DNA from: Clostridiales bacterium | Lineage (GTDB): Bacteria > Bacillota > Clostridia > Christensenellales > UBA1242 | Reading direction: 5' to 3' | DNA: 64,000 bases | Assembly (NCBI GenBank): GCA_015055815.1 | Contig: SVHM01000003.1 | Span: 53,271-117,270 of the forward strand | Shown: positions 11,286 through 27,510 of the stretch, piece after piece | How the letters are laid out: the number at the start of each line of letters is the position of its first letter | Position numbering within the stretch: the stretch's first letter is position 1 | Made by a program: the position numbers and the translations under genes | Notes under the pieces: generated by a model | The model's input: the letters and a program-made list of their open reading frames with translations, nothing else | What the model was told of the DNA's origin: nothing | Database searches by the model: none

Positions 11286-11443
11286 ACCATTAAGTTTCGG
11301 AAAATTTTCTCAAAAAAGTTACAGATTTATCTGTAAAATGAAAAATTTTTGTAAAAATTGAAAGATTTTTATTAAATTTTGACATACAATTTTTATTTTG
11401 ATAAATTTGCGTGATATAATAATTATGTAAATATAAATTTTCG

Positions 11444-11478
11444 AAGATTGGAAAGGAATTAATCTTTCCAATCTTTTT
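11444..11478 (+). terminator. Terminator-like hairpin just upstream of the small ORF RBS
   Basis: AAGATTGGAAAG (11444-11455), 8-nt loop, CTTTCCAATCTT (11464-11475), then T-rich sequence. Confidence 0.55.
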
Positions 11479-11507
11479 GTATTTTTTAAAAGTTTAGGGG
11501 GTGAGAA

Positions 11508-11618
11508 ATGAAAAAAAGAAAAATTATTGAAGTAAGAAAAAAATCTGAAAAAGATAATAATTATTCTTGTGATATTATTAATACAGACACGCACAAACAA
11601 ATTTCTTTGTGGGAATGA
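11508..11618 (+). CDS. Small 36-aa ORF (MKKRKIIEVRKKSEKDNNYSCDIINTDTHKQISLWE), not in the supplied ORF track
   Basis: Strong RBS AGGGGGTGAG just upstream of ATG 11508; TGA at 11616-11618. C-terminal QISLW resembles the QL[S/D]LF clamp-binding motif. Confidence 0.55.
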   Translation: MKKRKIIEVRKKSEKDNNYSCDIINTDTHKQISLWE

Positions 11619-11672
11619 TAGTTTTTAAATTGGAATGTTAATTATTAAATATTTATCTTTTGTTTTTATCCA

Positions 11673-11701
11673 TTGACAAAATATATAAAAAGATATATAT
11701 T
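11673..11701 (+). promoter_or_regulatory. SigA-type promoter of tyrS
   Basis: TTGACA 11673-11678, 17-nt spacer, TATATT 11696-11701. Confidence 0.65.
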
Positions 11702-11748
11702 AGTTGTATTAAATTTATTTAAATTTTCTGATATTAAGGAGACTAATT

Positions 11749-12993
11749 ATGATAGATACAAATTTATATAACGTACTAAAAGAAAGGGGACTATTGTATC
11801 AATGTAGTGATGAAGAAGCTTTTAAGAAAAGATTAGAGAGTGGTGAGCCACTTGTTATATATGAAGGTAGTGACCCTACAATGGATAGTTTGCATATCGG
11901 TCATTGTGTTCCTTATTGTATTTTGAGAAGATTTCAGAAAGCTGGACACAAAGTAATTCTTCTTATGGGTGGAGCAACTGCTTGTATTGGTGACCCAAGT
12001 GGTAAGTCTGATATGAGAAAAATGCTTACTTATGAAGATATCAAAAGTAATGTTGAAAAGATTAAGAAGTCTCTATCTGTATTTTTAGATTTTGATGGTG
12101 AAAACCCTGCTGAAATTGTTAATAATTATGATTGGTTTAAAAACTTAACATATATAGATTTTATGAGAGATTATGGAGTGCATTTTAATATTAATAAAAT
12201 GTTATCTTCTGAAATCTATAACAATAGACTTGAAAATGGCGGTTTAACATTCTTTGAAATGGGATATATGCCAATGCAAGCATATGACTTTGTTCATCTT
12301 AATAGAGAGAAAGGTTGTACCATTCAATATGGTGGTGCTGACCAATGGGGAAATATTGTTGCTGGTGTTGAGCTTCAAAGAAAGTTAAATTTCCAAAATG
12401 GTACTGATATTGAACTTATCGGTGCAACAAACCCACTTCTACTTACACCCGAAGGTAAGAAAATGGGTAAAACCGAAAAAGGTGCTATTTGGATAGACAA
12501 AGATAAAATTTCTCCTTATGACTTTTATCAAGGAGTATACCAAACACCAGATGCTTGTGTTGAAATGATGTTTGCATTGTTTACTGAAATTCCTATGGAC
12601 GAAATAAGAAAAATGATAGCAGAAGATATTGTAAAAGCAAAAGAAACTCTATGCTTTGAAATTACTAAATTTGTTCGTGGCGAAGAAGATGCTATTATTG
12701 CTAGAGATGCAAGTAAATCATTATTTGGTGGCGGTACAAACTTAGATAACGTTCCTACTTATGAGATGACTAGAGAAGAATTATCTACAAGTAGTGTAGC
12801 AGATATTTTAACAGTTACTAAACTTTGTGCGTCTAAGTCAGATAGTAGGAGAATGGTTGAAAATGGTGGTGTTTACTTAAATGAAGAAAAAGTAACCGAC
12901 TTTAGATATATGTTAAAAGATAGCGATTTTGAAAAAGGCTATGCACTACTTAGAAAAGGCAAGAAAAACTACATGAAGATAGTTTTGAAATAA
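11749..12993 (+). CDS. tyrS: Tyrosine--tRNA ligase
   Basis: DPTMDSLHIGH (HIGH), IGDPSGK, QAYDF, GGADQWGNI, KMGKT and a C-terminal S4 domain. Confidence 0.97.
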   Translation: MIDTNLYNVLKERGLLYQCSDEEAFKKRLESGEPLVIYEGSDPTMDSLHIGHCVPYCILRRFQKAGHKVILLMGGATACIGDPSGKSDMRKMLTYEDIKSNVEKIKKSLSVFLDFDGENPAEIVNNYDWFKNLTYIDFMRDYGVHFNINKMLSSEIYNNRLENGGLTFFEMGYMPMQAYDFVHLNREKGCTIQYGGADQWGNIVAGVELQRKLNFQNGTDIELIGATNPLLLTPEGKKMGKTEKGAIWIDKDKISPYDFYQGVYQTPDACVEMMFALFTEIPMDEIRKMIAEDIVKAKETLCFEITKFVRGEEDAIIARDASKSLFGGGTNLDNVPTYEMTREELSTSSVADILTVTKLCASKSDSRRMVENGGVYLNEEKVTDFRYMLKDSDFEKGYALLRKGKKNYMKIVLK

Positions 12994-13170
12994 TATTAAA
13001 AATTGTATTATGGTATTCCATGATACAATTTTTTATACTTTAAATTAAAAAATATTTAAAATTTATATACAAATGAACAAATCTTTAAAATTAAGTAAAT
13101 TTTTAACTTGAGATAATATATCCAATTTAATTGCAAAAAATATAAAAATAATATAAAATTAGTTAAAGTT

Positions 13171-13731
13171 ATGAAAGAGAAATGGAAAAAGTTTTTGTTA
13201 ATATTATTACTTCCTTTTATGATATTTATAGAAGGTTGTAGTTGTAGTGGTGATGGCGAAGTAACTTCTAGCCAAACTTTTCTTGTGCACTTTTATATGG
13301 GTGGACAAGGTGAAACCGACCCACTTCAAATAAAAGACCAAACAATTGTTTATGGTGGAACTATTACAAAACCTGTCGACCCCGTTTGGAAAGACCATTA
13401 TTTAGAAGGTTGGTATACCGATATGGAGTGTACAAATAGATGGGACTTTGCAAATGATAAAGTAAAAGAAGAAGTGCATTTATACGCTAAATGGGTGGGA
13501 CAATTTACCGTACAATTTAATCTTCATTCTACTTCTTGTACACCCGCTCATATTACTAATAGATATATTGTTGAAGGAGACAAAATTGCCGAGCCAGAAA
13601 AACCTACGTGGAAAGGTTATGATTTTGCTGGTTGGTATTTGGATGCTGAGTTTACATCACCATGGAATTTCTATGATGATGTCGTAACTGCTCATATGAC
13701 ATTACATGCAAAATGGGTAAAGAAAAAATAA
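13171..13731 (+). CDS. Lipoprotein with two InlB B-repeat (Listeria-Bacteroides repeat) domains
   Basis: Signal peptide ending EG-CSCS. Two repeats of the type P..P.WK.Y...GWY.D......W.F..D.V.....L.AKW. Confidence 0.85.
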   Translation: MKEKWKKFLLILLLPFMIFIEGCSCSGDGEVTSSQTFLVHFYMGGQGETDPLQIKDQTIVYGGTITKPVDPVWKDHYLEGWYTDMECTNRWDFANDKVKEEVHLYAKWVGQFTVQFNLHSTSCTPAHITNRYIVEGDKIAEPEKPTWKGYDFAGWYLDAEFTSPWNFYDDVVTAHMTLHAKWVKKK

Positions 13732-13831
13732 ATTTGTACAAAAATCATACAAATTTATTTGTGATTATAAATATTTTATGTTAATCTAAAAGTAACAAAA
13801 TGGTGGATAAAAAAATGGGGTTTAATATATT

Positions 13832-14377
13832 ATGGGTAAGAAATTTAATAAAATATGTGCTATAGTATTTTTTCCTATAGCATTTTTTGTATACTTAATT
13901 AAAGTAATTATAAAGGTAGTAAAAAAGGCTTTACTTAGGAAATATTTAAAAAATATAAGTGTAAATAAAATAGATAGCCTTGATGGAAAATCGTTTGAAG
14001 ATTTTTTGTATTACTTTTTCTTGAGTTTAAATTTAAAAGTAAAAAAGACATCACTTACACGTGATTATGGTGCCGATTTAATAATAGATTACAATGGTGA
14101 AAAAATAGTTATTCAGTGTAAAAATTATTATAATCATAAAGTCGGTAATTCGGCAATACAAGAAATTGCCACCGCTAAAGATTATTATAATGCTACGATT
14201 GGTATAGTGATAACTAATTGGTTTTTTACAAGTCCTGCACAAACCTTAGCGGGTAAAGTTGGCGTAAAATTAATTGATAGAAATATCCTGTCTCAAATTT
14301 TACATTCACCAAATACTATAAAAAACGATTATTTTGTAAATTTTATCGATAGTAATAAATTCGTTCAAACTATATAA
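13832..14377 (+). CDS. Membrane-anchored Mrr-type (Mrr_cat) restriction endonuclease domain protein
   Basis: N-terminal hydrophobic helix, then LDGKSFEDF, DYGADL, IQCKNY, VGNSAIQE and VITNWFFT. Confidence 0.8.
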   Translation: MGKKFNKICAIVFFPIAFFVYLIKVIIKVVKKALLRKYLKNISVNKIDSLDGKSFEDFLYYFFLSLNLKVKKTSLTRDYGADLIIDYNGEKIVIQCKNYYNHKVGNSAIQEIATAKDYYNATIGIVITNWFFTSPAQTLAGKVGVKLIDRNILSQILHSPNTIKNDYFVNFIDSNKFVQTI

Positions 14378-14467
14378 TTATGCTAATTATATCAATAACC
14401 AAAATTCAAAAAAAAGACACTTTTTTAAAAAATTAAAAGTGCCTTTCGTTTTTATTTATAATTATTT

Positions 14468-16093
14468 TTACTGATTAATCGTTGGTTTTTTAAGATTAGC
14501 TACTGCACCATTTACAAGTCCAACAAATAGTGGATGTGGTCTATATGGACGAGATTTAAATTCTGGGTGGAATTGGCTTGCTACAAAGAATGGATGGTCT
14601 TTGTATTCAATTATTTCTACCAAATTTTTATCACTATTTACACCCGACACAACCATACCCAAATCTTCGAATTTCTCTCTATATTCATTATTAAATTCGT
14701 ATCTATGTCTATGTCTTTCAATAATTTCTGGTTGTCCATATATTCTTCTAGCTAGTGTGCCATCTTTTAGGTTACATTTGTAATCACCAAGTCTCATTGC
14801 TTTTTCAAAGTTATTCCATTTGTTTTCTTCCATTTTGTTAATAACTGGGTTTTTCGTTTTTACATTAAATTCAGTACTTGTTGCGTCTTTTAATTTGGCT
14901 ACATTTCTAGCAAATTCAATTACAGATAGTTGCATACCTAGACAAATTCCAAGGAATGGAATTTTATTTTCTCTAGCATAATTAACTGCCAAAATCATTC
15001 CTTCAATTCCTTTATCTCCAAAGCCACCAGGAACGACAATTGCATCAAATGGTTTCAAGATATCTTTAACTCCGTACATCTCAATATCTTCACTAGATAC
15101 AAGAGTTATTTTTGCTTTATGTTTACTATTAAAACAAGCGTGTCTTAACCCTTCAGTTATAGAAAGATAAGAATATTGGTTTTCGGTATATTTACCAACA
15201 ATTGCAATATTTATAGCTGGCAAATCTTCATCCATACCATTTATCATTTCTTTCCATTTATTCAAGTTTAACGCATTACATGGCAAACTTAATTTTCCAA
15301 TTGCAATTCTATCTAAGCCTTCTTCTGCTAAATTTAGTGGTACTTCATAAATATTATTTGCATCTTTATTTTGAATAACAAAGTCTGAACTTTTCAAATT
15401 ACAAAACATTGCGATTTTTCTTTTTATATGGTCGCTCAAAGTAATATCTTTATTCGTTCTGCAAACTATTACATCTGGTTGAAGTCCGTATGAATTTAAA
15501 CATCTAACACTTGTTTGAGTAGGTTTAGTTTTTAATTCTTCTGTACTTTCCATGTATGGAACTAAAGTACAATGAATATGGATATAATTATCTTCAGTTA
15601 GTTCGTTTTGGAATTGTCTAACTGCTTCAAGATAAATAGCGTTATCCATATCTCCAACCGTTCCGCCAATCTCAATAATAACAACATCAGCGCTATCATC
15701 ATACGATTTCATACGTCTTTTGATTTCACTAGTCATATGTGGGACTTGTTGAATTGACATTCCTGTATTTTCATCATGCTTAGTATCGTTATTTATAAGC
15801 ATATCTGCAAGAATTTTTCCAGTAGTTAGATAATTATTTTTATCACTCTCAATATCTAGAAATCTCTCAATATATCCTAGTGCTAATGCACTTTCAACTC
15901 CATCATGAGAAACAAACACTTCGCCATACTGAATAGGGTTAATAAGACCTAAGTCAAAATTAAGTCTAGGGTCAAATCTTTGGAAATTAACTTTAATACC
16001 CCTTTCTATAAGTATTCTACCAAGTGCAACACCAGTAATGCCTTTACCTAAATTAGAAACAACACCACCAGTTATAAAAATATACTTACTCAT
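14468..16093 (-). CDS. CTP synthase-like protein with an intact glutaminase domain but a degenerate synthetase active site
   Basis: Likely start MSKYIFITGGVVS at 16093 (RBS GGAGA). EIGGTVGD, KTKPTQ, GICLGMQ and QFHPEF are present, but the canonical ETDLDLGHYERF reads ESALALGYIERF and the canonical QHGE reads QYGE. Confidence 0.85.
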   Translation of the reverse strand: MSKYIFITGGVVSNLGKGITGVALGRILIERGIKVNFQRFDPRLNFDLGLINPIQYGEVFVSHDGVESALALGYIERFLDIESDKNNYLTTGKILADMLINNDTKHDENTGMSIQQVPHMTSEIKRRMKSYDDSADVVIIEIGGTVGDMDNAIYLEAVRQFQNELTEDNYIHIHCTLVPYMESTEELKTKPTQTSVRCLNSYGLQPDVIVCRTNKDITLSDHIKRKIAMFCNLKSSDFVIQNKDANNIYEVPLNLAEEGLDRIAIGKLSLPCNALNLNKWKEMINGMDEDLPAINIAIVGKYTENQYSYLSITEGLRHACFNSKHKAKITLVSSEDIEMYGVKDILKPFDAIVVPGGFGDKGIEGMILAVNYARENKIPFLGICLGMQLSVIEFARNVAKLKDATSTEFNVKTKNPVINKMEENKWNNFEKAMRLGDYKCNLKDGTLARRIYGQPEIIERHRHRYEFNNEYREKFEDLGMVVSGVNSDKNLVEIIEYKDHPFFVASQFHPEFKSRPYRPHPLFVGLVNGAVANLKKPTINQ

Positions 16094-16278
16094 TTTCCAT
16101 TCTCCATTTTTTCTCTTATACAAATTTTACAAAATATTTAACTATTCGTCAAATAATTTAACATAAAACTCAAATATTATATATACTAAACTTAAATATA
16201 TTTTGTGTAAAATATATATAAATTATATTTTCTGTTTTTAACGTTTTGATTTAAAAATATTTGTTAAAATTTTTAAAG

Positions 16279-16289
16279 TGTGTTAAAAT
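16279..16289 (+). promoter_or_regulatory. Extended -10 element (TGTGTTAAAAT)
   Basis: The identical 11-mer precedes four genes (16279, 19189, 22923, 42571) and fits TGn-TAAAAT. Confidence 0.5.
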
Positions 16290-16324
16290 ATACTAACTTA
16301 ATGTAATTTAAAGGGTAAAATAAA

Positions 16325-17401
16325 ATGGATAAGTATAGTATTTTAAGAGATTTAATTCAGTTTAATACAGCATTTGATGCTCAAAACCAAGCAATAATGG
16401 AGTATATAGATAAGTACCTAACCGACAAAGGTTTTAGGACTAATTATTGTATCGACGACGATACTCAGAAGAAATGTCTTGTAGCTACTGCAGGTGTAAA
16501 TCCTGTACTTGGTTTTGTTTGCCATACAGATACATCACCACTTGGTGCTAACTGGTCAGACTATGACGCTATGGATTTAACTCTTGATGGAGATAAACTT
16601 ATAGGTCTTGGTATTTCTGAAATGAAAGGTGGTATGGCTGCCGTTCTTTCTGCAGTTGGTAACTTCGATTGGAAACTACCTAAAAAAGGTTTGAAACTTT
16701 TCTTCACATTCGACGAAGAAAATAACTTCACTGGTATCAAAACTATTGTTGCAAAAGAAAAAGAAATTCCACAAAACATAATAATTCCTACACCAACTAG
16801 TTTGTATCCAGTTGTTGCAACCAAAGGACTACTTAAACTTTGTGTAATGATTTCTGGAAAACCAGCACATAGTAGCAACCCAACAAAAGGTAGTAATGCA
16901 ATAGAGCATGCAGTATCATTCTTAGGTGAAGTTTATTCATTCAATAATAGATTGAAAGAAGACAAAAATAATGCTTTTGAACTTCCATATACAACATTTA
17001 ACTTAGGTAAAATTCAAGGCGGTTCATCACTTAACAGTGTTCCTGGTGAGTGTTCAACTTACTTAGAATATCGTACAATTAGACCCGACCACAATCGTCA
17101 AATTATTGAGAAAATCAACGACCTTGCTTCTAAATACAATGGTTTTGTAACCGTTATAGATGATGTTCCACCAATGTCAACATTTGCAGAAAACTTCATC
17201 TCTCGTCTAGAAGAATTAACAGGTAACAAACGTTCATCAATAGCTGTAGTTTCTGATGGTAACTACTTAGGTGAAAATGCCGTAGTACTTCTAGGTCCCG
17301 GACCAATCACAAGTGGTGAGAAAAATGAGTTTATAAGCAAGTTTAGTTATGAGACTTTGATAGAGCTTTATACCAAACTCCTAAAAGAAACCTGTTTTTA
17401 G
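16325..17401 (+). CDS. M20 family (ArgE/DapE-like) metallo-deacylase homologue with altered metal ligands
   Basis: CHTD, GISEMKGG, TFDEE, KGL..L.V...GKPAHSS.P.KG.NAIE and FNLGKIQGG.S.NSVP motifs. The canonical GEP reads PTP and the C-terminal AH is absent (GPGPITSGEKNE). Confidence 0.8.
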   Translation: MDKYSILRDLIQFNTAFDAQNQAIMEYIDKYLTDKGFRTNYCIDDDTQKKCLVATAGVNPVLGFVCHTDTSPLGANWSDYDAMDLTLDGDKLIGLGISEMKGGMAAVLSAVGNFDWKLPKKGLKLFFTFDEENNFTGIKTIVAKEKEIPQNIIIPTPTSLYPVVATKGLLKLCVMISGKPAHSSNPTKGSNAIEHAVSFLGEVYSFNNRLKEDKNNAFELPYTTFNLGKIQGGSSLNSVPGECSTYLEYRTIRPDHNRQIIEKINDLASKYNGFVTVIDDVPPMSTFAENFISRLEELTGNKRSSIAVVSDGNYLGENAVVLLGPGPITSGEKNEFISKFSYETLIELYTKLLKETCF

Positions 17402-17412
17402 GAAATATAAAC

Positions 17413-17782
17413 TTCGTAATAGTGCAGAAAATTCAAAAACGAGAAGCCAGTCATTTATGTTATATAAACTCCTGGCTCTCTTTTTTTATTTTCTTTCTCT
17501 TACTCGTTTCTATTTCCTAAAAAAACATGCAATCAAGTGAGTTGTTTTATTCACTCGGTCATTTATGTCATATAAACTCCCGTCATAAATATAATCATTT
17601 TTTTTGAATTACTCGTTTCTATTTCCTAAAAAAATTTTGATATTATAGGTTTTAGGTGTTTGGATTCGTATTAGTGCAGAAAATTCAAAAACGAGAAGCC
17701 AGTCATTTATGTCATATAAACTCATGTCGTAAATATTATTCTTTTTTTGACCTACTTGTCACTATTTCCTAAAAACATGCAA
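17413..17782. repeat. Degenerate three-unit intergenic repeat array including a 59-bp direct repeat
   Basis: 17413-17471 vs 17665-17723 differ at 2 positions. Core GTCATTTATGT(C/T)ATATAAACTC at 17450, 17558 and 17702. Second motif TACT(C/T)GT..CTATTTCCTAAAAA at 17501, 17610 and 17753. Confidence 0.85.
17441..17490 (+). terminator. Probable terminator of the M20 gene, formed within the first repeat unit
   Basis: GAGAAGCCAG ... CTGGCTCTC followed by TTTTTTTATT. Confidence 0.45.
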
Positions 17783-17824
17783 ATATATGTAATCTATTTT
17801 ATTTAACATTATTAAGTTATCAGG

Positions 17825-18298
17825 TTATTCTGCTAAATTAATAAAATTTTTCTTTAACTTTTTAGCATAATTCATTGTTTTATTTGCTCCGCTATTTTCG
17901 GTATTCTTAACGTAAAAAATTATCTTATCACTATTTTTTATCATCTCTACATTTCTATAATATATTCGTTTATTAAAGCCATTATATTGAAGTGGAAAAA
18001 ATACAAATTCTTCAAATTCTTCATCTAACAAATATTTTGGGCGTTTAAGTCTATTTAAATGTTTTTCTTCAGTTAATACGAATACTCTTCTAATATAAGG
18101 GTATTCTTTTTTTACGTCTGTCACAATCTCCCATGCAAGCTCATCAAACTTTCCAAAACCACCAAACAAAAATACACCAAAATTCTCTTGTGTAATTAAC
18201 TTTATTATTAAATTTTTCAAATCTTCTTTCAATTTATCGGTTATTTCTAATTCGCTATGACCAAAGAAAGATAAAGTACTTGTTAACGATGTATTCAC
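17825..18298 (-). CDS. SLOG superfamily (YpsA/DUF1273-like) nucleotide-binding protein
   Basis: SFFGHS, FGGFGKFD, RNVEMIKNSD.IIFY and SGANKTMNYAKK..K.FINL motifs. GTG start, apparently leaderless. Confidence 0.75.
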   Translation of the reverse strand: MNTSLTSTLSFFGHSELEITDKLKEDLKNLIIKLITQENFGVFLFGGFGKFDELAWEIVTDVKKEYPYIRRVFVLTEEKHLNRLKRPKYLLDEEFEEFVFFPLQYNGFNKRIYYRNVEMIKNSDKIIFYVKNTENSGANKTMNYAKKLKKNFINLAE

Positions 18299-18391
18299 AA
18301 TCTAATAATAGTATGTTTCTTAAAAGTTGTCAATGCATTCACAACATAAAATAATAACAATTGATAAAATTTATGTGAATACATTGACAAC
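18282..18391. promoter_or_regulatory. Divergent promoter/operator region with three copies of an operator-like motif
   Basis: 18-bp inverted repeat GTTGTCAATGCATTCACA (18326-18343) / TGTGAATACATTGACAAC (18374-18391) with 1 mismatch, plus a third partial copy at 18282-18300. Minus-strand TTGACA (18333-18328), 17 nt, TATTAT (18310-18305). Confidence 0.7.
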
Positions 18392-18410
18392 TTTATGGAG
18401 ATTAATAATT

Positions 18411-18668
18411 ATGAAATTACACGAAGCGGTTGGGAAAAGAATACTTGAATATTGTAAAGAAAGGAATATAACGCCTAATAAATTGTGTACAATGTCAGGT
18501 GTAATACAATCTACGGTAAATAGTATATTTTCTGGTAGAAGTAAAAATCCAAAACTTGCAACTATTCAATATTTATGTGCTGGACTTAATATTACTATTA
18601 AAGAATTTTTCGATAGTCCATTGTTTATAAAGGTAAAACATGAATTTAAACAAAGCAATTGTGTATAG
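18411..18668 (+). CDS. XRE-family HTH regulator 1
   Basis: RBS GGAG before ATG 18411. Pattern AVGKRILE.C.E.NIT...L...SGV..STV.SI..G.SKNPK..TI..LC.GL.ITI.EFF. Confidence 0.85.
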   Translation: MKLHEAVGKRILEYCKERNITPNKLCTMSGVIQSTVNSIFSGRSKNPKLATIQYLCAGLNITIKEFFDSPLFIKVKHEFKQSNCV

Positions 18669-18894
18669 ACTATTAAAATTATTATCAGAAAAAGTAATGA
18701 CAATATATCGTTATGAGAAAGAAAGTGGAATAAGTCATTCGGCATCAAATTATATATTTAATGAAACAAATAAAGATGTAAAATTTTCAACTATTGTAAA
18801 AGTTTGCTATATTTTAAGAATTAGTCTAGAAGAATTTTTTAGTGATAGTATTTTTGATATAAATAAATTAGATTTTGAATTGGTGAAATTATGA
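18640..18894 (+). CDS. XRE-family HTH regulator 2 (divergent paralogue)
   Basis: Same pattern (AIVYRL...ESGIS.S...IF...K..KFSTI.K.C..L.ISLEEFF); overlaps regulator 1. Confidence 0.75.
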   Translation: MNLNKAIVYRLLKLLSEKVMTIYRYEKESGISHSASNYIFNETNKDVKFSTIVKVCYILRISLEEFFSDSIFDINKLDFELVKL

Positions 18895-19133
18895 CATTAG
18901 ATGAAGCAGTAAGAACAAGGATATTAGAAATTATTGAAGAGAAAAATATTACTCTTACGGCATTATGTTTAAATTCAAATTTAACTCCATCAACTATTTT
19001 TGATTTTATGTATAATAAAAGCAAAAGTCCTAAAATTATTACGATCAAAAAATTGTGTGTAGGTGCTGGAATAACTTTAGAACAATTTTTTGCAAGAGAT
19101 TATTTCAACAGTGATGAAGAAATATTTAACTAA
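18891..19133 (+). CDS. XRE-family HTH regulator 3
   Basis: AVRTRILEI..EKNIT...L...S.LTPSTI...KSKSPKIITIKKLC.G.GITLEQFF; ATGA overlap with regulator 2. Confidence 0.85.
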   Translation: MTLDEAVRTRILEIIEEKNITLTALCLNSNLTPSTIFDFMYNKSKSPKIITIKKLCVGAGITLEQFFARDYFNSDEEIFN

Positions 19134-19296
19134 TTTCTCAAACTTTTTTATAAATTTATACAACTTAAATTTGTTTTTTATATTCAATTGTGTTAAAATA
19201 AACATATATGTAATGAAATTATAATATATTATATAGATATATTTGATTTTTTTGGAGTTCTTTTGAAACTTCTTTTCGAAATTTATAGGAGAAAAA

Positions 19297-20805
19297 ATGT
19301 TTAAAATATTCACTTCGTCAAAGCTTAAATTATTCCTATTGCTTATTATAAATGTGGCAGTAGCTTTTTTGATGTCATTTTTTAATTTGCTTTATGTATA
19401 TTTTGCTTCATGTTTATTTTTGGCTATATTGTCTATTTTCTTTATCGCTAATAGACCTGAAAGAGACGCATACAAAGTTATGGTATTTTTGCTTATCATA
19501 ATGCTTCCACTTTATGGTATAGGTTTTGCTTTTACGAACAAAGAAAACAAAGGCACCAAGAAAATTAAAAAAGAATGGTCAGATATTGTTTATAGAAATA
19601 GAAAAACAGTATTCCAAAGTAATGAAACAATGGATTTACTTAAAAATACCGACAGTGAAGTTTACAAAACTTGTAGTTATATTGTAGATAGTATTGGTAT
19701 GCCATGTTTCCAGAATGCAAAAGTTAAATATTTTTCTTTCGGTGAAGCATATTTCAAAGATTTGTTTGATGAATGTAAAAAAGCACAAAAATTCATTTTG
19801 TTTCAATGTCATAAGGTAGTGCCGGGTAATATTTGGACACAGTTATTTGATACTCTTAGATTTAAAGCTAGAGAAGGTGTAACTGTTAAATTTATTTACG
19901 ACCATGAAGTTTGTACAAAGTTTATCTCAAATGATGACTTTATGAAAATGAGAAATCATGGAATTGAAACTATTCCTTTTAATACATTAAAAAGTTCTGA
20001 TGCAACTTTCTTAAATTGTAGAAATTATAAACGTCTTTGTGTAATTGATGGAAAAGTTGGTTTCTTTGGTGGTTTTGATGTAAATGATGAATTTGTTGAA
20101 AGTTCAGAACTTACAAACGCAACTAAAGATTGTGCAGTTAAAATTATGGGCGAAAGTGTTAAAAATTTAACAGTAATGTTCTTTGAAGATTACCAATTCG
20201 CAACAAAGAAAGTAATTAATTTACAAGATTACTTTGCAGACAACGAAAGTTCAAAAACTAAAGATTGGATACTTCCATATTCTACAAACCCAGTATCGAC
20301 AGAGCATACGAACAAAAATATTTTACTTAGTCTTATTAATAATTCCAGAGATAATATTACAATTACAACATCATATTTAGGAATTGATGATGAACTAAGA
20401 AATGCACTTATTGTTAACGCAAAATCGGGTGTGAAAGTAAGGCTTATTTTCTCTGGTGAGAAAGTTAAGAAAAAATACAAAAACCTTGCAAGGTCGTACT
20501 TTTATGAACTTATAAAAGGTGGCGTAGAAGTATATGAATATAAGGGTGGTAAAATGACAACCAAACTTATTATCATAGACAACAACTTATGCTTGCTTTC
20601 AACTAATAACTTAGACTGTTCATATACATATAGACACTTTAATGGTGGCGTGATAGTCTATGGAGAGTCAGCAATCCTTATGTATAACGATATGCGAGAA
20701 ATTATCAATAATTCTCAAATACTTACTATCAAAGATTTGCAAAAGAGAAAGTTAGGCGAAAAAATTAGTTCAACATGGACTAAGTTTATGGAGATATTTA
20801 AATAA
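19297..20805 (+). CDS. Cardiolipin synthase-like protein with both HKD motifs lacking the catalytic His
   Basis: Two N-terminal TM helices plus a PLDc_N-like segment and YFSFGEAYF. Motif 1 reads RNYKRLCVIDG (canonical RNHRK...D) and motif 2 reads MTTKLIIID (canonical HxK...D). Confidence 0.85.
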   Translation: MFKIFTSSKLKLFLLLIINVAVAFLMSFFNLLYVYFASCLFLAILSIFFIANRPERDAYKVMVFLLIIMLPLYGIGFAFTNKENKGTKKIKKEWSDIVYRNRKTVFQSNETMDLLKNTDSEVYKTCSYIVDSIGMPCFQNAKVKYFSFGEAYFKDLFDECKKAQKFILFQCHKVVPGNIWTQLFDTLRFKAREGVTVKFIYDHEVCTKFISNDDFMKMRNHGIETIPFNTLKSSDATFLNCRNYKRLCVIDGKVGFFGGFDVNDEFVESSELTNATKDCAVKIMGESVKNLTVMFFEDYQFATKKVINLQDYFADNESSKTKDWILPYSTNPVSTEHTNKNILLSLINNSRDNITITTSYLGIDDELRNALIVNAKSGVKVRLIFSGEKVKKKYKNLARSYFYELIKGGVEVYEYKGGKMTTKLIIIDNNLCLLSTNNLDCSYTYRHFNGGVIVYGESAILMYNDMREIINNSQILTIKDLQKRKLGEKISSTWTKFMEIFK

Positions 20806-20934
20806 AAGTGTTACAAAAAAGTAACACTTTTTTTAAATTATATTTACATTAAATATGAAATAATTGTAATTTTATTAAAATTGTGTTAGAGTATAAATAG
20901 AGAGAAAACTCTTTTTAAAAAAGTGGGGTAAAAT

Positions 20935-21978
20935 TTGAAAAAAGAAAAAATCGGCATAGTTGGTGCGGGTGCAGTTGGAAGAATGCTTGCTGTTGTGCTG
21001 GCTAGTCGGGGATATGAAGTAGAACTTGTTAATAGAAAACCTAAAGGCATTAAGATAAACAATAAATATGAATACTCTCTCAAAGGTGATTTTGGTAAAT
21101 TAAAGGCACTAATACATTCGGTAAAAACTATTGAAAGTTTATCAAAAGACTTGTCGGTTATAATATTTACAACACGTGCGTATGATACAGTAAATATTAT
21201 AGAAAAGCACTTACCAAAATTAAAATTTAACGGTGTTGTAGTTACTATTCAAAATGTATTTTGTATAGACAAAATTTCGAGATTAATTCCATCAAATAAA
21301 TCAGTTTGTGCATATTTAGATATTTGTTGTATAAAAGAAAAAGACATGGTTATTGCTAAAGATTTCAATGGAACAACACTTGGTATTTATGATTGTCAAG
21401 CTTTTGAAAATATGCAGTATATAAAAAGTATTTTTCAGTCATTTACAACTGTTCATGAAACAAAAGATATCATGGGTTTTGTGCTTGGTAGAAACATTAT
21501 AAACGGTGCAATTTCAATGCTTGGAGCAATATCTGGCATGAATTTAGGTGACATCTTATGGGATAGAAATGGTAGGTTTTTGTTTAAAAAAATAATCATG
21601 GAAGCCGTTTCTGTTATTAAAAGATTTAGGATAAATATTTTACCTTACAATGGAAATTTAGATTATTATAAATTCACCGAAAAATCATTAGGTGGAATGA
21701 GTTACCGAAGAAAAATAATTTCAATTTTAAGAAAAAATAATAGATACGTTAGATCTTCAGCGCTTTCAGATATTGAAAATGGTAGACGTACAGAAATTGG
21801 CTTTGTTTTGGGACTTATTATGGAATATGGTAAAAAGTATAAATTGGATATAAAATATATAACTGAAATTTATAACATGGTTTTAGAAATTGAAAAGGGC
21901 GAAAGACCTGTATCAGAAAATGCTTTTTATGATGAAAGATTATTAAAATTACAAAGATATAAAGGAGAATTATTATGA
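20935..21978 (+). CDS. Ketopantoate reductase (PanE/ApbA)-like protein, divergent
   Basis: TTG start. Rossmann GAGAVG, TTRAYD, IQN and SSALSDIENGRRTEI motifs. The usual W.K...N helix reads LGRNIIN. Confidence 0.75.
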   Translation: MKKEKIGIVGAGAVGRMLAVVLASRGYEVELVNRKPKGIKINNKYEYSLKGDFGKLKALIHSVKTIESLSKDLSVIIFTTRAYDTVNIIEKHLPKLKFNGVVVTIQNVFCIDKISRLIPSNKSVCAYLDICCIKEKDMVIAKDFNGTTLGIYDCQAFENMQYIKSIFQSFTTVHETKDIMGFVLGRNIINGAISMLGAISGMNLGDILWDRNGRFLFKKIIMEAVSVIKRFRINILPYNGNLDYYKFTEKSLGGMSYRRKIISILRKNNRYVRSSALSDIENGRRTEIGFVLGLIMEYGKKYKLDIKYITEIYNMVLEIEKGERPVSENAFYDERLLKLQRYKGELL

Positions 21979-22397
21979 TTATAGATGATATTAAAAAAGC
22001 AAATATTGAAGCAATGAAAAATAAGGATAGCAAGGCAAGAGCAATATATAGTGTACTTATGAATAAATACTTGCTTGCTCAAGTAGAAAGTAGAACTACT
22101 GGAAAAGAAGTAGAAGATGCAGATATGGTGAGAATTATCCAAAAGACAATTAAAGAACTAGAAGAAGAAAGAGATAATTACGCAAAAGTAGGAAATACTG
22201 AAGAAGTAGAGACTATTGAATATGAAAAGTCTTTACTTGAAAAATACCTACCACAAATGCTATCTGCTGAAGAAATAAAAGCAATAATTGAAACAATTGA
22301 AGACAAAACAGTGCCAAGCGTAATGAGACATTTTAAAACAAATTACAATGGTAAAGTTGACATGAAAACCGTTTCAGAAGTATTAAAGAATATGTAA
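21975..22397 (+). CDS. yqeY: GatB/YqeY domain protein
   Basis: IKKANIEAMKNKD, YAKVG...E, LEKYLPQMLS.EEI and VDMK.VSEVLK; ATGA overlap with the previous gene. Confidence 0.9.
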   Translation: MIIDDIKKANIEAMKNKDSKARAIYSVLMNKYLLAQVESRTTGKEVEDADMVRIIQKTIKELEEERDNYAKVGNTEEVETIEYEKSLLEKYLPQMLSAEEIKAIIETIEDKTVPSVMRHFKTNYNGKVDMKTVSEVLKNM

Positions 22398-22443
22398 AAA
22401 AACATCTCAAAAGAGATGTTTTTTATTTTTTTAACCAAACTAC

Positions 22444-22472
22444 TTGCAAAAGTATAGAAATTGGGTTATAAT
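22444..22472 (+). promoter_or_regulatory. SigA-type promoter of tRNA-Glu
   Basis: TTGCAA 22444-22449, 17-nt spacer, TATAAT 22467-22472. Confidence 0.7.
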
Positions 22473-22488
22473 GTTTCATGAAGTTTAT

Positions 22489-22563
22489 GCTCCCATGGTC
22501 AAGCGGTCAAGACGTCGCCCTCTCACGGCGGAATCAGGGGTTCGATTCCCCTTGGGAGTACCA
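22489..22563 (+). tRNA. tRNA-Glu (anticodon CTC) with encoded CCA
   Basis: Acceptor stem GCTCCCA/TGGGAGT, anticodon arm TCGCC-CTCTCAC-GGCGG, T arm AGGGG-TTCGATT-CCCCT, 3' ACCA. Confidence 0.97.
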
Positions 22564-22772
22564 AAAAAATATTAAAGCCGAATGGCTTTCTTTTTTTTGT
22601 CACTACCAAGGGTGTGTGTTACACACGGATATTTTCAATATCCGAATCGAACGTACTCGTTCGTAATTCGAAATGCAAGTCATTTCTACTCACGAGATAT
22701 ACGAACAGTGTTCGCATAGACGATTCCCTTATGTTCGTACCAAAAAAATATCAAAGCCGAATGGCTTTTTTT
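22558..22772 (+). repeat. Multi-hairpin element bounded by 32-bp direct repeats made of the tRNA 3' end plus its terminator
   Basis: GTACCAAAAAAATAT(T/C)AAAGCCGAATGGCTTT at 22558-22589 and 22737-22768, with five short perfect hairpins between them. Confidence 0.8.
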
Positions 22773-22962
22773 AACTCCTAAGTAATTGCTATCGCAATTA
22801 TCAATTTTATTAATGTGGAAGTTTTAGCATATTAGTCGACACGTAATGTGTCTCCTTTTGTATATTTATATATTTAATATTATAAAATATATTACTCACC
22901 TTACTTGTAACAAAAAATATTTTGTGTTAAAATATATTAATCTGAAAAAAAAGGAGTAAAAA

Positions 22963-25900
22963 ATGCTAGAAGTAAGAAATTTAGTCAAGAGATATAAGAT
23001 TAGTAAAAAATCAAAAAAGCAAACTGTTACAGCTCTTAACAAAGTATCTATTACTTTCCCTGACAAGGGACTTGTTTTCTTACTTGGTAAAAGTGGTAGT
23101 GGTAAATCAACACTTCTTAATGCTATCGGTGGACTTGATACTTTTGACGAAGGCGAAATTATTATTAAAGGTAAGTCTAGTAAAAGTTTTTCACAGTCAG
23201 ATTTTGATAGTTATAGAAATACTTTTATTGGGTTTATTTTCCAAGAGTATAACGTTTTGGAAGAGTTTACAGTTGCTAAAAACTTAGAACTTGCTATTGA
23301 ATTGCAAGGTAAAAAACCAACTAAAGAAAATGTTAATAAATTGCTTCAAATGGTTGAAATGTTGGATTTTGCAAAAAGAAAACCAAACCAACTTTCTGGT
23401 GGTCAGAAGCAAAGAGTTGCTATTGCTAGGGCGCTTATAAAAAACCCAGAAATAATAATGGCTGACGAGCCTACTGGTGCTCTTGATAGTAACACCGGTA
23501 AACAAGTAATGGAAACTCTAAAAAATCTATCTAAAGAAAAATTGGTCATTATTGTTTCTCACGATAGAGAGTTTGCTGAAATTTATGGTGATAGAATTAT
23601 TGAACTAAAAGACGGCAAGATTATTAGAGATGTTACCAAAAAAGAAGTTGAGCCAGACAAAGAAGGCTCTGGACTTAGTGTAATTGATGGAGACGTTATT
23701 CACATTAAGAAAGGTCATAAATTTACGCAAGACGATTTGAATATTATTTGTAAAAAAATCATGATGAGTAATTCATCTTCAGACACAATCATTTCTATGT
23801 CGAGTGAAGCGAATGTCGAAGTTAAAAAAGCAACATCTATTACAGATGATGGTAATAGAGAAGTGTTTAAAGACACTTTGACTGAAGATGTTGTTACAAA
23901 AGATTATTCACATACAAAGTTTAAACTTATTAGGTCAAAACTTAAATTCAAAGATTCCTTTAAAATGGGTGCAAGCGCTTTGAAAAACAAAGTAGGAAAA
24001 CTTGTGTTTACAATACTACTTTCATTTGTGGCTTTTGCTATGTTTGGTATTGTTGATACTTTGTCGTCATTTAATAGACCAGTTGCGGTTGCTGACTCAG
24101 TTCAATTTTCCCATAAAAAACATATTTCTCTAACAGAGAAAACTAAAGGAGAATACCGTGACTATTATAGTGCGTTTAGTCAAGAAGACTTGAACGTATT
24201 AAAAGAGAAATTTCCAGATATTAAGATAAAACCTATTGCTAATCGTGATATGCCACTTGGTGGGTCTAGTAGTTATGATTTAAATTCAATTCAAGTTGAA
24301 ATAGATGGATTGGGAAGCCTTGCAGATAACAAAGCTAAAAAGAATTTTGCTTATACTGGAATGATGTATGTAGATGAAAGTGAAATTACAACTTATGGAC
24401 TAAGTTTAGTTGCTGGTAGATGGCCAGAAAAAGAACGTGAAATTGCTATTACAAATTGGCAATATAAGTGTATCAAACAAAAATATTCAGAAAAAGTTAC
24501 CAAAGAAGATGATGTTTTAAACACATATAATAAAATTAGAATTAATAATATAGACCATTATATTGTTGGAATTATCGAAAATGGTGCTGACATGTCTAAA
24601 TATGAAAATGAAAGTGACGATAATAATAACCAAAATATGGGTATGATTCAACAAATGACTGCAGGTGCAGAATTTAGTTTTGGTATAGAACATGTAGTAT
24701 ACGTGTCTGAAAACTATTATAACAATTTATTAGAAAAAAATGATAATATTCAAATATCTATTAGTGTTGAAAATAGTAATAGTAGCACTGTTAAGAGCCT
24801 TTCAGAAATGCATACAGATAATATGGAAGTGGAGTTTGAAAAATATAAATTTCCAGAAAGTGCTGTTATTCACTTTAATAAATACATTTGGCATAAAGAT
24901 GGTATAGTTTTGAAAGATGATCATACATTTTTAAATTTAAAAGACAATGAAGTTATTTTGCCATTAAATCATTTAACAAATATTTGTGGTGGACAATTAA
25001 GTGAAAAAGACATTATGGACAAAATTAATAATGGTCTTGTTATAAAACAAGTAAAAAGAGTATATAACAATGAAACACATGAGTACGATGTATCCTTAAG
25101 TGGTGTAGAATATAAGGTAGTTGGATATTCAAATAATGGTGGTTATGGTTTTGCTAGTAGTGAATTTAGTGAAGAAAAATTGTCTTTGCATGGTAAATAT
25201 TATGTGATAAATGATGACGATTTGTCTAATGCAAAAGAAGATTATTCACATACATCTTTTACTACTTTTAATGAATATTTTAATAATTACTGTAGTGGTA
25301 GAACTAATGCAACAATAGAAAACTTTTTACAAAGTAGTTTTGGTGCAATCTACATGAAAGATGGATACAATTTTTATGAAAATGGTGAATTTTATAAACT
25401 AAAAGAAGATGAAGTTATTATAAGTCAAGACGCAATACCAGGGAGTTTTACAAGTGAAGATGCTGAAGATTTGATTAAACTAGCAAATAGCGGTACAACT
25501 TTAGAGCTTTCTATTAACTATGGCTATACGCCTATAACAAAACTAAAAGTGGTAGGTGTTGTTCAATCTTATGGTGTATTCATGGTATCAGAAAAAGTTA
25601 TGAACGAGAAATTCTTGCCACTTGTAGAAGGTTTTTCATATGCTGTCGCAACTCTTTCAGATAATAGTGAAACAAACAAAACATTTATTGAATATTGTGA
25701 AAGGGGAGACGAAAACGGAATTAAATATATCGTTCAAAATGATGTAACGGGTATTTTAGATGAATTCCAAGAGATATTTAATAGTATTACTGAAGTGTTC
25801 TTCTATGTTGGTATTGTGTTTGCGGTATTCTCTGCATTCTTGCTTATGAACTTTATTTCAACAAGTATTAGTTACAAGAAAAGAGAGATTGGTGTTCTTA

Positions 25901-27380: not shown

Positions 27381-27510
27381 CACCATATTACTCCTTTGGG
27401 TTGATTGGATATGTATATTATACATGACAAGTATAAGAAAGTAAAGACAAATGTCAGGTAAATTTGTATAAATGAATATAATTTATTTTTATTTAATTGG
27501 GAGACATTTG

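Follow-up and report, generated by a model that had tools for sequence, protein, structure and literature searches.

Four enzyme homologues at one locus

The window, a stretch of 64,000 nucleotides, comes from a gut Christensenellales bacterium with a reduced genome of 1.3 Mb, represented by a 98%-complete assembly of 15 contigs. Homologues of CTP synthase (PyrG-like), M20 deacylases (M20-like), cardiolipin synthase (Cls-like) and ketopantoate reductase (PanE-like) lie here, with intervening genes outside the set and a YqeY-family gene downstream (Table 1). A preliminary description of the sequence had assigned the four to these families and reported intact frames of normal length, and both points hold: all four open reading frames are intact and of normal length, and profile matches together with alignments to structures and database sequences place each protein in its named family. 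Residue numbers refer to PyrG, ArgE and PanE of E. coli and to ClsA of B. subtilis; alignments to PDB and database sequences yield identical equivalences.

Table 1. Genes, substituted sites and hairpins at the locus (window coordinates)
Feature	Coordinates	Strand	Basis or remark
PyrG-like gene, 541 aa from ATG 16093	14468-16093	-	sole pyrG homologue in genome; NF003792 match
PyrG-like His509 and Glu511 (H515/E517)	14561-14569	-	alignments
PyrG-like Cys384 (E. coli C379), glutaminase nucleophile kept	14942-14944	-	alignments
ALALGY codons A69-L-A71-L-G-Y74, canonical D70-L-D72-L-G-H75	15872-15889	-	alignments
PyrG-like Tyr56, in place of His57	15926-15928	-	alignments
PyrG-like Arg39, in place of Lys40	15977-15979	-	alignments
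M20 (ArgE/DapE-like) gene, 358 aa	16325-17401	+	sole M20 homologue; divergent from PyrG-like gene over 231-bp spacer
M20-like Glu99 at bridging D112 position	16619-16621	+	alignments
M20-like Thr156 at metal ligand E169 position (ArgE numbering)	16790-16792	+	alignments
M20-like Gly331 at H355 position	17315-17317	+	alignments
YpsA/SLOG-like gene	17825-18298	-	PF06908, E 3.8e-4, weak, under Pfam cut-off; intervening, outside the set
Three tandem small HTH_26 (Cro/C1-type) genes	18327-19133	+	intervening; vary among strains and relatives
Cls-like membrane protein, 502 aa, two PLD-type halves, each without catalytic His	19297-20805	+	TIGR04265 match
Cls-like HKD1 remnant Y244-K-R246-L-C-V-I-D251 (canonical H-x-K-x4-D)	20026-20049	+	alignments
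Cls-like HKD2 remnant T421-T-K423-L-I-I-I-D428, Lys and Asp kept, then STNNLD	20557-20580	+	alignments
Terminator-like hairpin directly 3' of Cls-like, parting it from PanE-like	20804-20831	+	hairpin search
PanE/ApbA-like reductase homologue, 347 aa	20935-21978	+	TIGR00745 123.6 bits, under 141.35 cut-off
PanE-like Arg186 replacing catalytic K176	21490-21492	+	alignments
YqeY-family gene, overlaps PanE-like stop codon	21975-22397	+	overlap seen at all loci examined, from 16 genomes and contigs
Terminator-like hairpin after YqeY gene	22397-22424	+	hairpin search

Catalytic sites of the four proteins

The PyrG-like gene almost certainly starts at ATG 16093, which gives the MSKYIF start common to all homologues, rather than at TTG 16123 of the open reading frame list. 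Its product has the full-length two-domain architecture of canonical CTP synthase (TIGR00337 / NF003792; 1VCO, E. coli 1S1M, fly CTPS PMC8325340), scoring 688 bits against NF003792 (cut-off 308) and matching PDB chains with a phmmer E-value of 1e-149. When it is aligned to T. thermophilus CTPS 1VCO, ETDLDIGHYERF lies opposite ESALALGYIERF, and comparison with 118 canonical homologues gives seven replacements in E. coli numbering: K40R, H57Y, D70A, D72A, H75Y, E149D and D303Y. The reported change of DLDLGH to ALALGY is therefore real, and the positions hit comprise phosphoryl-transfer residues, His57, the UTP-ribose contact (E149) and the ATP-ribose contact (D303). The protein shares with the canonical enzymes the P-loop, K18, E140, G142/G143, D147, the KTKPTQ segment (K187-T188-K189, Q192), R211, K223, the oxyanion glycines and the full Cys-His-Glu glutaminase triad (C379, H515, E517). 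It differs from them, beyond the seven sites, in a remodelled 102-108 loop and an altered GTP lid (GGT to EK[AS]), and this form is confined to three closely related lineages. At positions where conservation exceeds 90%, twenty-five changes are specific to the variant clade; 23 of them map to the synthetase domain (positions 22-184), including those at 40, 70 and 72 (phosphoryl transfer), at His57 and in the 102-108 loop.

Judged from these residues, the PyrG-like protein would still bind nucleotides, with its P-loop, E140, KTKPTQ triphosphate site and complete glutaminase site remaining, and would have lost its phosphoryl-transfer and tunnel-gate residues (K40R, D72A, D70A, H57Y) along with the ATP-ribose contact (D303Y); we take His57 to be the gate of the ammonia tunnel. 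The protein most likely no longer makes CTP. What it does instead we can suggest tentatively: a pseudo-synthetase that binds nucleotides or oligomerises, whether or not it has a regulated glutaminase, comes a little short of even odds, and an amidotransferase with a changed acceptor is a good deal less probable. The missing aspartates might be made up for by E140 and the 102-110 loop, which has become acidic. In the fly CTPS report (PMC8325340, section 10), Asp70 (D72) has a role in phosphoryl transfer and reaches the transferred phosphate through water only, the K38A mutant (Lys40 equivalent) has dramatically reduced activity, and His55 (His57 equivalent) appears solely among the residues that touch the UTP triphosphate through water. 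Since K40R is conservative and D72 acts via water in the fly enzyme, residual or altered-metal CTP synthase activity may persist.

The M20-like protein shares catalytic and dimerisation domains with the dinuclear-zinc deacylases E. coli ArgE (7RSF) and DapE (3IC1, 5VO3), scores 200 bits against TIGR01892 (cut-off 297.7) and falls under all NCBIfam cut-offs. Alignment to 7RSF, with which MAFFT agrees, bore out the earlier reading that its metal ligands are changed or lost: H80, E144, E145 and the AHSS histidine segment remain, in contrast to D112 (Glu), E169 (Thr) and H355 (absent, Gly). The D112E change is confined to the host species, and a 90%-identical relative (L116) has Asp, whereas the whole variant clade has Thr, Ser or Ala for E169 and Gly or Asn for H355. 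Each zinc site would have lost one ligand, with His80, Asp/Glu112, the general base E144 and E145 remaining; on these grounds the protein could at best carry a rearranged single metal and is predicted to be a binding protein or a hydrolase of altered chemistry.

Like ClsA-type cardiolipin synthases, the Cls-like protein has hydrophobic segments at its N-terminus, ahead of two PLD-like halves, and it matches TIGR04265 over its full length with 195 bits (E 2e-57; cut-off 290). The HKD1 sequence is RNYKRLCVID, with Tyr for His and Arg for Lys, and that of HKD2 is MTTKLIIID, with Thr for His; comparison with the genome's own canonical paralogue and with database outgroups confirmed that both HKD histidines are missing. 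Unlike in ClsA, both catalytic histidines are replaced (Tyr/Phe and Thr/Ser), and the HKD regions still carry their Lys/Arg, Asp and Asn, so that both motifs would retain phosphate-binding residues and lack the nucleophile and general acid. We know of no PLD-superfamily catalysis without the HKD histidines, and this one is most likely a membrane protein that binds phospholipids without catalysis. No sequence-level relative was found in the PDB; the vertebrate FAM83 pseudo-PLD domains, which also have a PLD fold without PLD catalytic residues, offer an analogy (PMC6008594).

The PanE-like protein shares the ApbA and ApbA_C domains, the GxGxxG motif (GAGAVG), N98, S244 and E256 with PanE/ApbA (T. 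kodakarensis 5HWS; E. coli PanE). Its LGRNIING segment lies opposite WAKAIVN of T. kodakarensis KPR 5HWS, establishing the catalytic Lys-to-Arg change (K176R) that had been described, and its subfamily is set apart from PanE/ApbA by Arg at K176 and Val, Met or Leu at G99. The protein differs from PanE/ApbA also in its translational coupling to yqeY, seen at every locus examined, and in belonging to a genome without pantoate ligase. Because panC was not found in the 98%-complete host assembly, ketopantoate reduction would feed no pathway, and the protein appears not to be a pantothenate-pathway enzyme. With a conservative replacement and the remaining site residues kept, it may still be an active reductase, probably NAD(P)H-dependent and acting on a different keto substrate from that of the pantothenate pathway, Arg standing in for the Lys as acid.

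Selection, age and distribution

Against a goat-gut strain of the same species, synonymous and nonsynonymous changes numbered 11:5 in PyrG-like, 27.5:7.5 in M20-like, 8:2 in Cls-like and 8:2 in PanE-like, small counts that total 54.5:16.5 and correspond to omega values of 0.06-0.11 (0.06 for PanE-like). Between species, where dS has reached or nearly reached saturation (1 or more), omega was 0.08-0.15 for PyrG-like (0.07-0.10 for its synthetase domain), 0.05-0.13 for M20-like, 0.06-0.16 for Cls-like and 0.16 for PanE-like against L132, compared with 0.09 for TyrS, 0.09-0.13 for canonical congener PyrG and 0.21-0.24 for fast-evolving neighbours. The substituted motifs are conserved inside each variant clade, M20 D112E excepted. 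The four genes are thus selection-maintained proteins with altered sites, and their strong purifying selection, resembling that on TyrS, identifies them as working proteins, probably of altered or abolished chemistry, rather than as genes in decay, which supports the earlier view of them as retained and repurposed.

The four sets of changes differ in age. The PyrG variant accounts for 3 of 8000 scored homologues, forming a monophyletic clade (100/100) nested among canonical congeners, whose stem measures 0.56 and whose tips measure 0.11-0.14. The M20 variant clade holds about 35 clusters and its sister group retains all five ligands; the His-less Cls-like clade, of about 80 clusters, has a canonical nearest outgroup; Arg-type PanE occurs throughout the genus and extends to about 20 of the nearest 50%-identity cluster representatives. 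Elsewhere in the genus PyrG has lost D70/D72 at least two further times independently, one such clade having an omega of 0.076, and Cys379 is lost in 13 clusters. Several separate His-less Cls-like paralogue groups also exist. The proposed lineage-wide habit of keeping dead paralogues draws some support from these recurrent losses, but "dead paralogues" fits Cls-like alone: a catalytically intact second copy is present for Cls-like (G000:C15:15208-16782), and PyrG-like, M20-like and PanE-like are sole copies as far as a 98%-complete, 15-contig assembly can tell.

Interpretation of the altered sites

We favour, with a probability of about 0.65, the reading that these are four separate functional genes with clade-conserved catalytic-site replacements, which do not form one system and whose ancestral reactions have become dispensable. 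Their ancestors would be a CTP synthase, an ArgE/DapE-type M20 deacylase, a ClsA-type cardiolipin synthase and a PanE/ApbA reductase. Besides panC, pyrF (OMP decarboxylase) was not found in the 98%-complete host assembly, which carries two cmk copies and one PRK-family kinase (udk-like) gene, and pyrG was found in 10 of 24 congeners, several of those without it being more than 95% complete. A lineage living by salvage, with half of its congeners pyrG-less, could dispense with the ancestral reactions, and the retained copies would be kept for some other role. Prozymes, catalytically dead paralogues that activate an active partner, such as the trypanosome AdoMetDC prozyme (PMC5201418), likewise keep a fold under selection after losing catalytic residues, and Cls-like resembles them in coexisting with an intact paralogue. 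Partner activation is not general here, however, since three of the four genes have no active paralogue and the His-less protein is the only Cls homologue in some complete congeners (G013, G014), where it cannot merely be the partner of an active Cls.

That the four are pseudogenes in the making, with stops and frameshifts still to come, would suit a reduced genome in a genus that is losing pyrG, where congeners keep the canonical PyrG residues and two congener copies have in-frame stops. We nevertheless regard it as scarcely credible: omega stays at 0.05-0.16 in all four genes at shallow and deep divergence, the PyrG variant motifs are identical among lineages only 77-78% identical overall, and M20-like orthologues are 77-90% identical across the sub-genus, exceeding PyrG in conservation. 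It is also quite improbable that all four are ordinary enzymes performing their ancestral reactions with non-canonical residues (Arg for Lys, Glu for Asp, another acid binding Mg). The K40R, K176R and D112E changes are conservative, PyrG-like scores far over its equivalog cut-off, D72 works via a water molecule in the fly CTPS text cited above (PMC8325340), and PanE-like has N98, S244, E256 and its Rossmann motif intact; yet Cls-like has neither HKD histidine, M20-like is short of one ligand per metal site, seven PyrG-like sites changed together, no PanC would use the product of ketopantoate reduction, and M20-like, Cls-like and PanE-like each fall under their NCBIfam cut-offs.

Gene order

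The preliminary description had taken co-location as a sign of shared function or of such a lineage-wide habit, and shared function was not supported: the substitutions differ in age, the genes belong to four or more transcription units and lie on both strands, and the PyrG/M20 pair is separated from the Cls-like/PanE-like pair in two relatives, by 66 kb in G024 and by placement on separate contigs in G014. A single pathway or complex uniting all four would explain why they lie inside 9 kb in G000 and G013, why in 9 of 11 sub-genus genomes M20 precedes Cls-like on a shared strand, and why Cls-like and PanE-like are at most 2.3 kb apart in 14 of 18 assessable loci, some of them in congeners whose proteins share only about 30% identity. 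Against it, besides the opposite strands, the terminator after Cls-like and the split pairs, intervening genes differ among genomes, and many genomes have M20, Cls-like and PanE-like without pyrG (G015, 98% complete); co-occurrence of the four follows one subclade and so carries no independent signal. We therefore consider one module very unlikely. Under the favoured reading of four separate genes, their proximity would mostly reflect inherited gene order near the replication origin, with Cls-like and PanE-like-YqeY as the exception.

Conservation of the neighbourhood in relatives was found for Cls-like with PanE-like-YqeY, the only genes that stay neighbours across the genus and at deep divergence, but not for all four together, and a functional link may thus exist between at least these two. 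As a compatible refinement, it is possible, though doubtful, that Cls-like, PanE-like and YqeY alone form a real module, perhaps for lipids or the cell envelope, with PyrG-like and M20-like as bystanders. The array panE-like, yqeY, X, cls-like recurs in G010, G019 and G001 although their flanks map elsewhere in the host genome, panE-like and yqeY overlap at every locus examined, and an SPT-like gene lies 1-4 kb off in five relatives. Cls-like and PanE-like are, however, unlinked in G020 and G008 and parted by the hairpin in the host, and we know of no chemistry joining a His-less PLD fold to an ApbA-type reductase. The neighbourhood includes a DAC-like gene in distant congeners and has the SPT-like gene nearby in close ones.

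Selection on four homologues with substituted catalytic residues

The nearest families of the four homologues are PyrG, ArgE/DapE, ClsA and PanE/ApbA, and each protein lacks at least one defining catalytic feature of its family. The preliminary description had read substituted catalytic residues in all four from the sequence, and alignments to solved structures, to the paralogue and to homologues bear out every one of these substitutions. It had also proposed that the proteins were repurposed rather than decaying. Between the window and a second strain of the same species from goat gut (L118, L131), the ratio of synonymous to nonsynonymous differences was 11:5 for PyrG-like, 27.5:7.5 for M20-like and 8:2 for both Cls-like and PanE-like, with within-species omega values of 0.06-0.11. 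Against species-level relatives omega was 0.08-0.15 for PyrG-like, 0.05-0.13 for M20-like, 0.06-0.16 for Cls-like and 0.16 for PanE-like; deeper pairs have dS of at least 1, which makes their omega rough, and the shallow pairs agree. Controls on the same contigs gave 0.09 (TyrS) and 0.07 (YqeY), and the fast-evolving Flg_new and Mrr-like neighbours 0.21-0.24. Low dN/dS (omega 0.05-0.16) together with conservation of the substituted motifs rules out decay of the four genes and upholds the proposal of repurposing.

Intact second copies had been suggested as a further check, and one was found for Cls only: a paralogue on another contig of the same genome (C15) has both His/Lys pairs intact. PyrG-like, M20-like and PanE-like are sole copies.

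The PyrG-like protein keeps its binding sites and has lost phosphoryl-transfer residues

The PyrG-like gene had been listed, from a mechanical ORF list, as starting at TTG 16123. Its homologues all begin at the position of ATG 16093 (MSKYIF), which is the likely start. The protein is a full-length match to NF003792 (688.4 bits, cut-off 308) and TIGR00337 (672.9 bits, cut-off 462.75) and can be aligned over its whole length with CTP synthases of known structure, ESALALGYIERF falling opposite ETDLDIGHYERF.

The window protein was compared, together with its two closest relatives, with 118 canonical homologues in E. coli numbering. This clade has 25 specific differences at positions more than 90% conserved elsewhere, and 23 of them lie in the synthetase domain, including residues 22-24, K40R, Y44R, P49L, M52I, H57Y, T69S, D70A, D72A, H75Y, Y76I/V, the 102-108 loop and E149D among others; beyond that domain lie D303Y and a change at R356. 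The phosphoryl-transfer set K18/K40/D72/E140 has therefore lost two members, K40 to Arg and D72 to Ala, with K18 and E140 unchanged; D70 is Ala as well. H57Y, E149D and D303Y are constant across all three members, so that the clade has no intact His57/E149/D303; His57 is the ammonia-tunnel gate of CTP synthase. Kept at the synthetase and nucleotide sites are the P-loop with K18, D42, E140, G142/G143, D147, K187-T188-K189, Q192, R211, K223 and D240, and at the glutaminase site C379, H515, E517, G351/G352, E403, R468 and R470. The triad Cys379/His515/Glu517 and the oxyanion residues Gly351/Gly352 are intact in the window protein and in both relatives (clusters P0002 and P0003).

The roles of several of the residues at these sites can be taken from a cryo-EM study of fly CTPS (PMC8325340). 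There K16 and K38 (E. coli K18 and K40) touch the transferred phosphate directly, and K38A dramatically reduces activity; D70 and E145 (D72 and E140) reach the same phosphate through water. D312 (D303) and E154 (E149) touch the ribose of ATP and of UTP respectively, and H55 (H57) makes a water-mediated contact with the UTP triphosphate.

From these residues, the PyrG-like protein is probably no longer a CTP synthase. Its nucleotide-binding residues and glutaminase machinery would have been maintained, and the residues that perform and gate amination replaced. Constraint on the substituted synthetase domain (omega 0.07-0.10) is tighter than on the glutaminase domain (0.09-0.24), and canonical PyrGs of congeners have values of 0.09-0.13.

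Repeated loss of the same residues within the genus

Among 8000 scored homologues, the ALALGY state occurs in only three 90%-identity clusters, P0001 (99% identical), P0002 (78%) and P0003 (77%), which share the motif QR[FY]DPRLNFDLGLINPI[QK]YGEVFV[ST]HDGVESALALGY[IV]ERF. A maximum-likelihood tree makes them monophyletic (100/100) and places them within the canonical PyrGs of their genus; the stem is long (0.56) and the tips are short (0.11-0.14), as a burst of change with constraint afterwards would leave them.

Two other groups among the closest homologues lost D70 and D72 independently of this clade. P0028/P0029 carry H57Y, D70S, D72G, H75N and E149D, with a stem of 0.47 and omega of 0.076; P0036 carries H57F, D70S, D72T, H75K, C379S and H515Q. 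The aspartates were thus lost at least three times in the genus, with small residues (Ser, Gly, Thr) as substitutes in the sister lineages too. H57 turned aromatic every time, and two of the three lineages also have E149D. All three keep the P-loop; KTKPTQ, at the UTP-triphosphate site, was checked in the window's clade and is kept there. The opposite half is altered in 13 further same-genus clusters (P0012, P0014-P0017, P0019, P0025-P0027, P0030-P0032 and P0037), where Cys379 is Gly, Ser or Ala, in some with H515L/Q, and the synthetase site is canonical. Of 24 congeners only 10 have the gene at all, and the genomes that lack it include several of more than 95% completeness; two congener copies contain in-frame stops.

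Because one of the sister lineages without D70 and D72 also lacks the glutaminase Cys, catalysis as such is arguably dispensable, and selection would then be keeping a nucleotide-binding, oligomerising scaffold. In the window's clade, where the triad is strictly kept, the protein may therefore still act as a glutaminase under nucleotide control or as an amidotransferase whose acceptor is new.

The M20-like, Cls-like and PanE-like proteins

The M20-like protein has both expected domains (PF01546, 1.4e-14; PF07687, 3.8e-20; Peptidase_M20 and M20_dimer) and scores under the curated cut-offs of TIGR01892, its best model (200.1 bits against 297.7), and TIGR01910 (144.5 against 217.6). Aligned to E. 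coli ArgE (7RSF), it keeps H80, E144 and E145; the bridging D112 is Glu, E169 is Thr and H355 is Gly, so the five-ligand dinuclear site (H80, D112, E145, E169, H355) with its general base E144 is incomplete. D112E is private to the species, and the state lacking E169 and H355 extends over about 35 clusters at 62-100% identity and also, at 46% identity, to P0155; all five ligands are present in the group that follows at 36-44%. With each zinc site one ligand short, the protein may have a rearranged site for a single metal or may bind a ligand without catalysis. At 77-90% identity across the sub-genus the protein is among the most conserved of the region, which argues for an important function. 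In relatives, a lipoprotein-like gene (214-231 aa, signal peptide and Cys) and a gene for a small two-TM protein (70-84 aa) lie 5' of the M20-like gene on the same strand; neither was found in the window or elsewhere in its genome.

The Cls-like protein reads RNYKRLCVID and MTTKLIIID at positions that are HRKxxxxD and HSKxxxxD in its C15 paralogue and in the closest outgroups from the database; in neither of its two motif copies (YKRLCVID, TTKLIIID) is the catalytic His of HxKxxxxD present. TIGR04265 covers residues 36-498 (E 2e-57), but at 195 bits against a cut-off of 290, and PF13091 reaches the C-terminal half only. The His-less state is found in all of about 80 clusters at 50-100% identity, the nearest outgroups (36-37%) being canonical, and further His-less paralogue groups occur in other congeners. 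Enzymes of the PLD superfamily work through a covalent phosphatidyl-enzyme intermediate that needs the HKD histidines, and no such intermediate would therefore form here. The retained Lys/Arg, Asp and Asn suggest binding of phosphate or lipid, for which the FAM83 pseudo-PLDs (PMC6008594) offer an analogy. Prozyme-type partners (PMC5201418) are an analogy that is mostly inapplicable to the four genes. A prozyme-like role for Cls-like is weakened by two genomes, G013 and G014, in which it is the sole Cls homologue and hence not merely the regulator of an active one.

The PanE-like protein has the ApbA and ApbA_C domains (PF02558, 1.6e-15; PF08546, 5.3e-17) and the Rossmann motif GAGAVG, with 123.6 bits against the TIGR00745 cut-off of 141.35. 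N98, S244 and E256 are kept and Arg replaces the catalytic K176, leaving the Lys176/Asn98/Ser244/Glu256 set incomplete. All members of the genus have Arg, as do about 20 of the closest 50%-identity representatives; Lys occurs in more distant relatives. A search of the genome for Pantoate_ligase (PanC) gave no match (9 of 14 reference genomes were positive as a control), which would leave a ketopantoate reductase without a pathway. The simplest reading of the protein would be a working NAD(P)H reductase that acts on a different substrate. By homology, key residue loss and purifying selection, all four would fit the general concept of a pseudoenzyme or a neofunctionalised enzyme, PanE-like being the weakest case for a dead enzyme because its K to R change is conservative.

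Gene neighbourhood

Both strands are used and terminator-like hairpins lie 3' of Cls-like and 3' of YqeY, so at least four transcription units are present. Broad synteny across the sub-genus runs TyrS - Flg_new - Mrr - [pyrG] - M20 - ... - Cls-like - ... - PanE-like>YqeY - ... - SPT-like, with variable intervening genes; in relatives, family searches with those between M20, Cls-like and PanE-like mostly gave no match. The pyrG/M20 pair is 66 kb from the Cls-like/PanE-like pair in G024 and on a separate contig in G014. Strands, terminator and split synteny speak against a single operon or module, and the co-location of the four is best read as inherited gene order. The shared function once suggested for the cluster is thus unsupported for the four together, the exception being Cls-like with PanE-like/YqeY, the only neighbourhood that looks selected. 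Cls-like lies within 2.3 kb of PanE-like>YqeY in 14 of 18 assessable loci, and the array panE-like > yqeY > X > cls-like persists in three congeners (G010, G019, G001) despite about 30% protein identity and rearranged flanks. In all 16 genomes or contigs examined, the PanE-like stop and the yqeY start overlap (21975-21978 in the window) or are separated by a few bases to about 190 bp.

Features of the region 14468-22397 in gene order, and associated genes here and in relatives
Feature	Location	Strand	Remark
PyrG-like	14468-16093	-	
M20-like	16325-17401	+	
YpsA/SLOG-like	between M20-like and Cls-like	-	weak match
Three small HTH_26 genes	between YpsA/SLOG-like and Cls-like	+	
Cls-like	19297-20805	+	
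PanE-like	20935-21978	+	
YqeY	21975-22397	+	
Alpha-oxoamine synthase (SPT-like)	28002-29198	-	best NF047600 (Bacteroidota-type serine palmitoyltransferase model), 558.6 bits, cut-off 640; Kbl model 419 bits
Lipoprotein-like and two-TM pair, relatives	L123:5484-6436; L116:2524-3373; L115:536-1400; L127:5227-6142		
DAC-like gene, about 360 aa, congener G019	L134:6011-7093	-	also L133, L135, L136, L137
DAC-like gene, congener G017	L137:14590-15855		
Homologue of DAC-like gene, own genome	G000:C4:145882-147216		outside window

The SPT-like gene lies 1-4 kb from PanE-like/YqeY in five relatives, which may hint at a lipid-related neighbourhood. In distant congeners, a gene of about 360 aa always lies directly 5' of the His-less Cls-like gene. 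Its only Pfam matches are faint, to the diadenylate cyclase DAC domain (E 0.006) and, for the G017 copy, to the sensor domain DACNV (E 0.05). Where the motifs of DAC enzymes are DGA and GTRHRAA, the gene reads FDGITIID and GGARKRAA, and it could count as a fifth altered-motif homologue of an enzyme.

Interpretation and metabolic context

OMP decarboxylase was not found in the genome, which has two cytidylate kinases and one protein of the PRK/uridine-kinase family; pyrimidines therefore come from salvage, and CTP can in principle be obtained from salvaged cytidine or CMP on this gene content. Taking the observations jointly, we put at roughly 0.3 the probability that the genus repeatedly converted PyrG into a selection-maintained protein that does not make CTP (nucleotide-sensing, a filament or scaffold, a regulated glutaminase or a new amidoligase), and that in parallel Cls-like, an Arg-type ApbA reductase and YqeY became a conserved envelope- or lipid-associated module, with an altered-motif diadenylate-cyclase-like gene in some lineages. 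If true, the CTPS scaffold has an undescribed role other than CTP synthesis.

A search of one library of papers found no report of a synthetase-dead CTPS or of a His-less bacterial Cls, and to our knowledge evolutionary evidence has seldom been given for bacterial pseudoenzymes or housekeeping enzymes put to new use. The four homologues allow relative dating and a demonstration of selection. PyrG-like is the most informative: it is the organism's only pyrG homologue, keeps its nucleotide-binding and glutaminase residues, and is under selection as strong as that on true CTP synthases though its phosphoryl-transfer residues are gone, sister lineages having arrived independently at a similar state. 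For these reasons a non-canonical function of the scaffold can be tested directly on the purified protein. For the function of the uncharacterised YqeY family, the conserved Cls-like/PanE-like/YqeY neighbourhood provides a lead. Automatic annotation will label the four genes CTP synthase, acetylornithine deacetylase, cardiolipin synthase and ketopantoate reductase, so that metabolic reconstructions from these gut MAGs will wrongly credit them with CTP, arginine/lysine, cardiolipin and pantothenate capabilities.

Occurrence and strain variation

The window spans 53271-117270 of contig C4 in an assembly (G000) that measures 1.31 Mb in 15 contigs (98% completeness, about 30% G+C), and the database namesakes of its proteins come from Christensenellales or Clostridia MAGs. 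An Rfam E-value scan of 11000-30000 returned tRNA-Glu only and no regulatory RNA, and the RNA runs searched for the pyrG-like gene gave no match. Near-identical copies of the stretch occur in faecal metagenomes (host unspecified) and gut metagenomes, goat and sheep gut among them. These contigs differ by strain: 19 nt and 29 nt stand in place of the intergenic segments 17418-17548 and 17637-17702, 3' of M20, and small insertions occur where the first two HTH genes meet (18626-18635). In two metagenome runs (X11 and X13), contigs fuse the middle of the M20-like gene (16768) to the start of the PanE-like gene (20934) with 21 unrelated letters between; at a likeness threshold of 90%, another organism may be the source of this junction.
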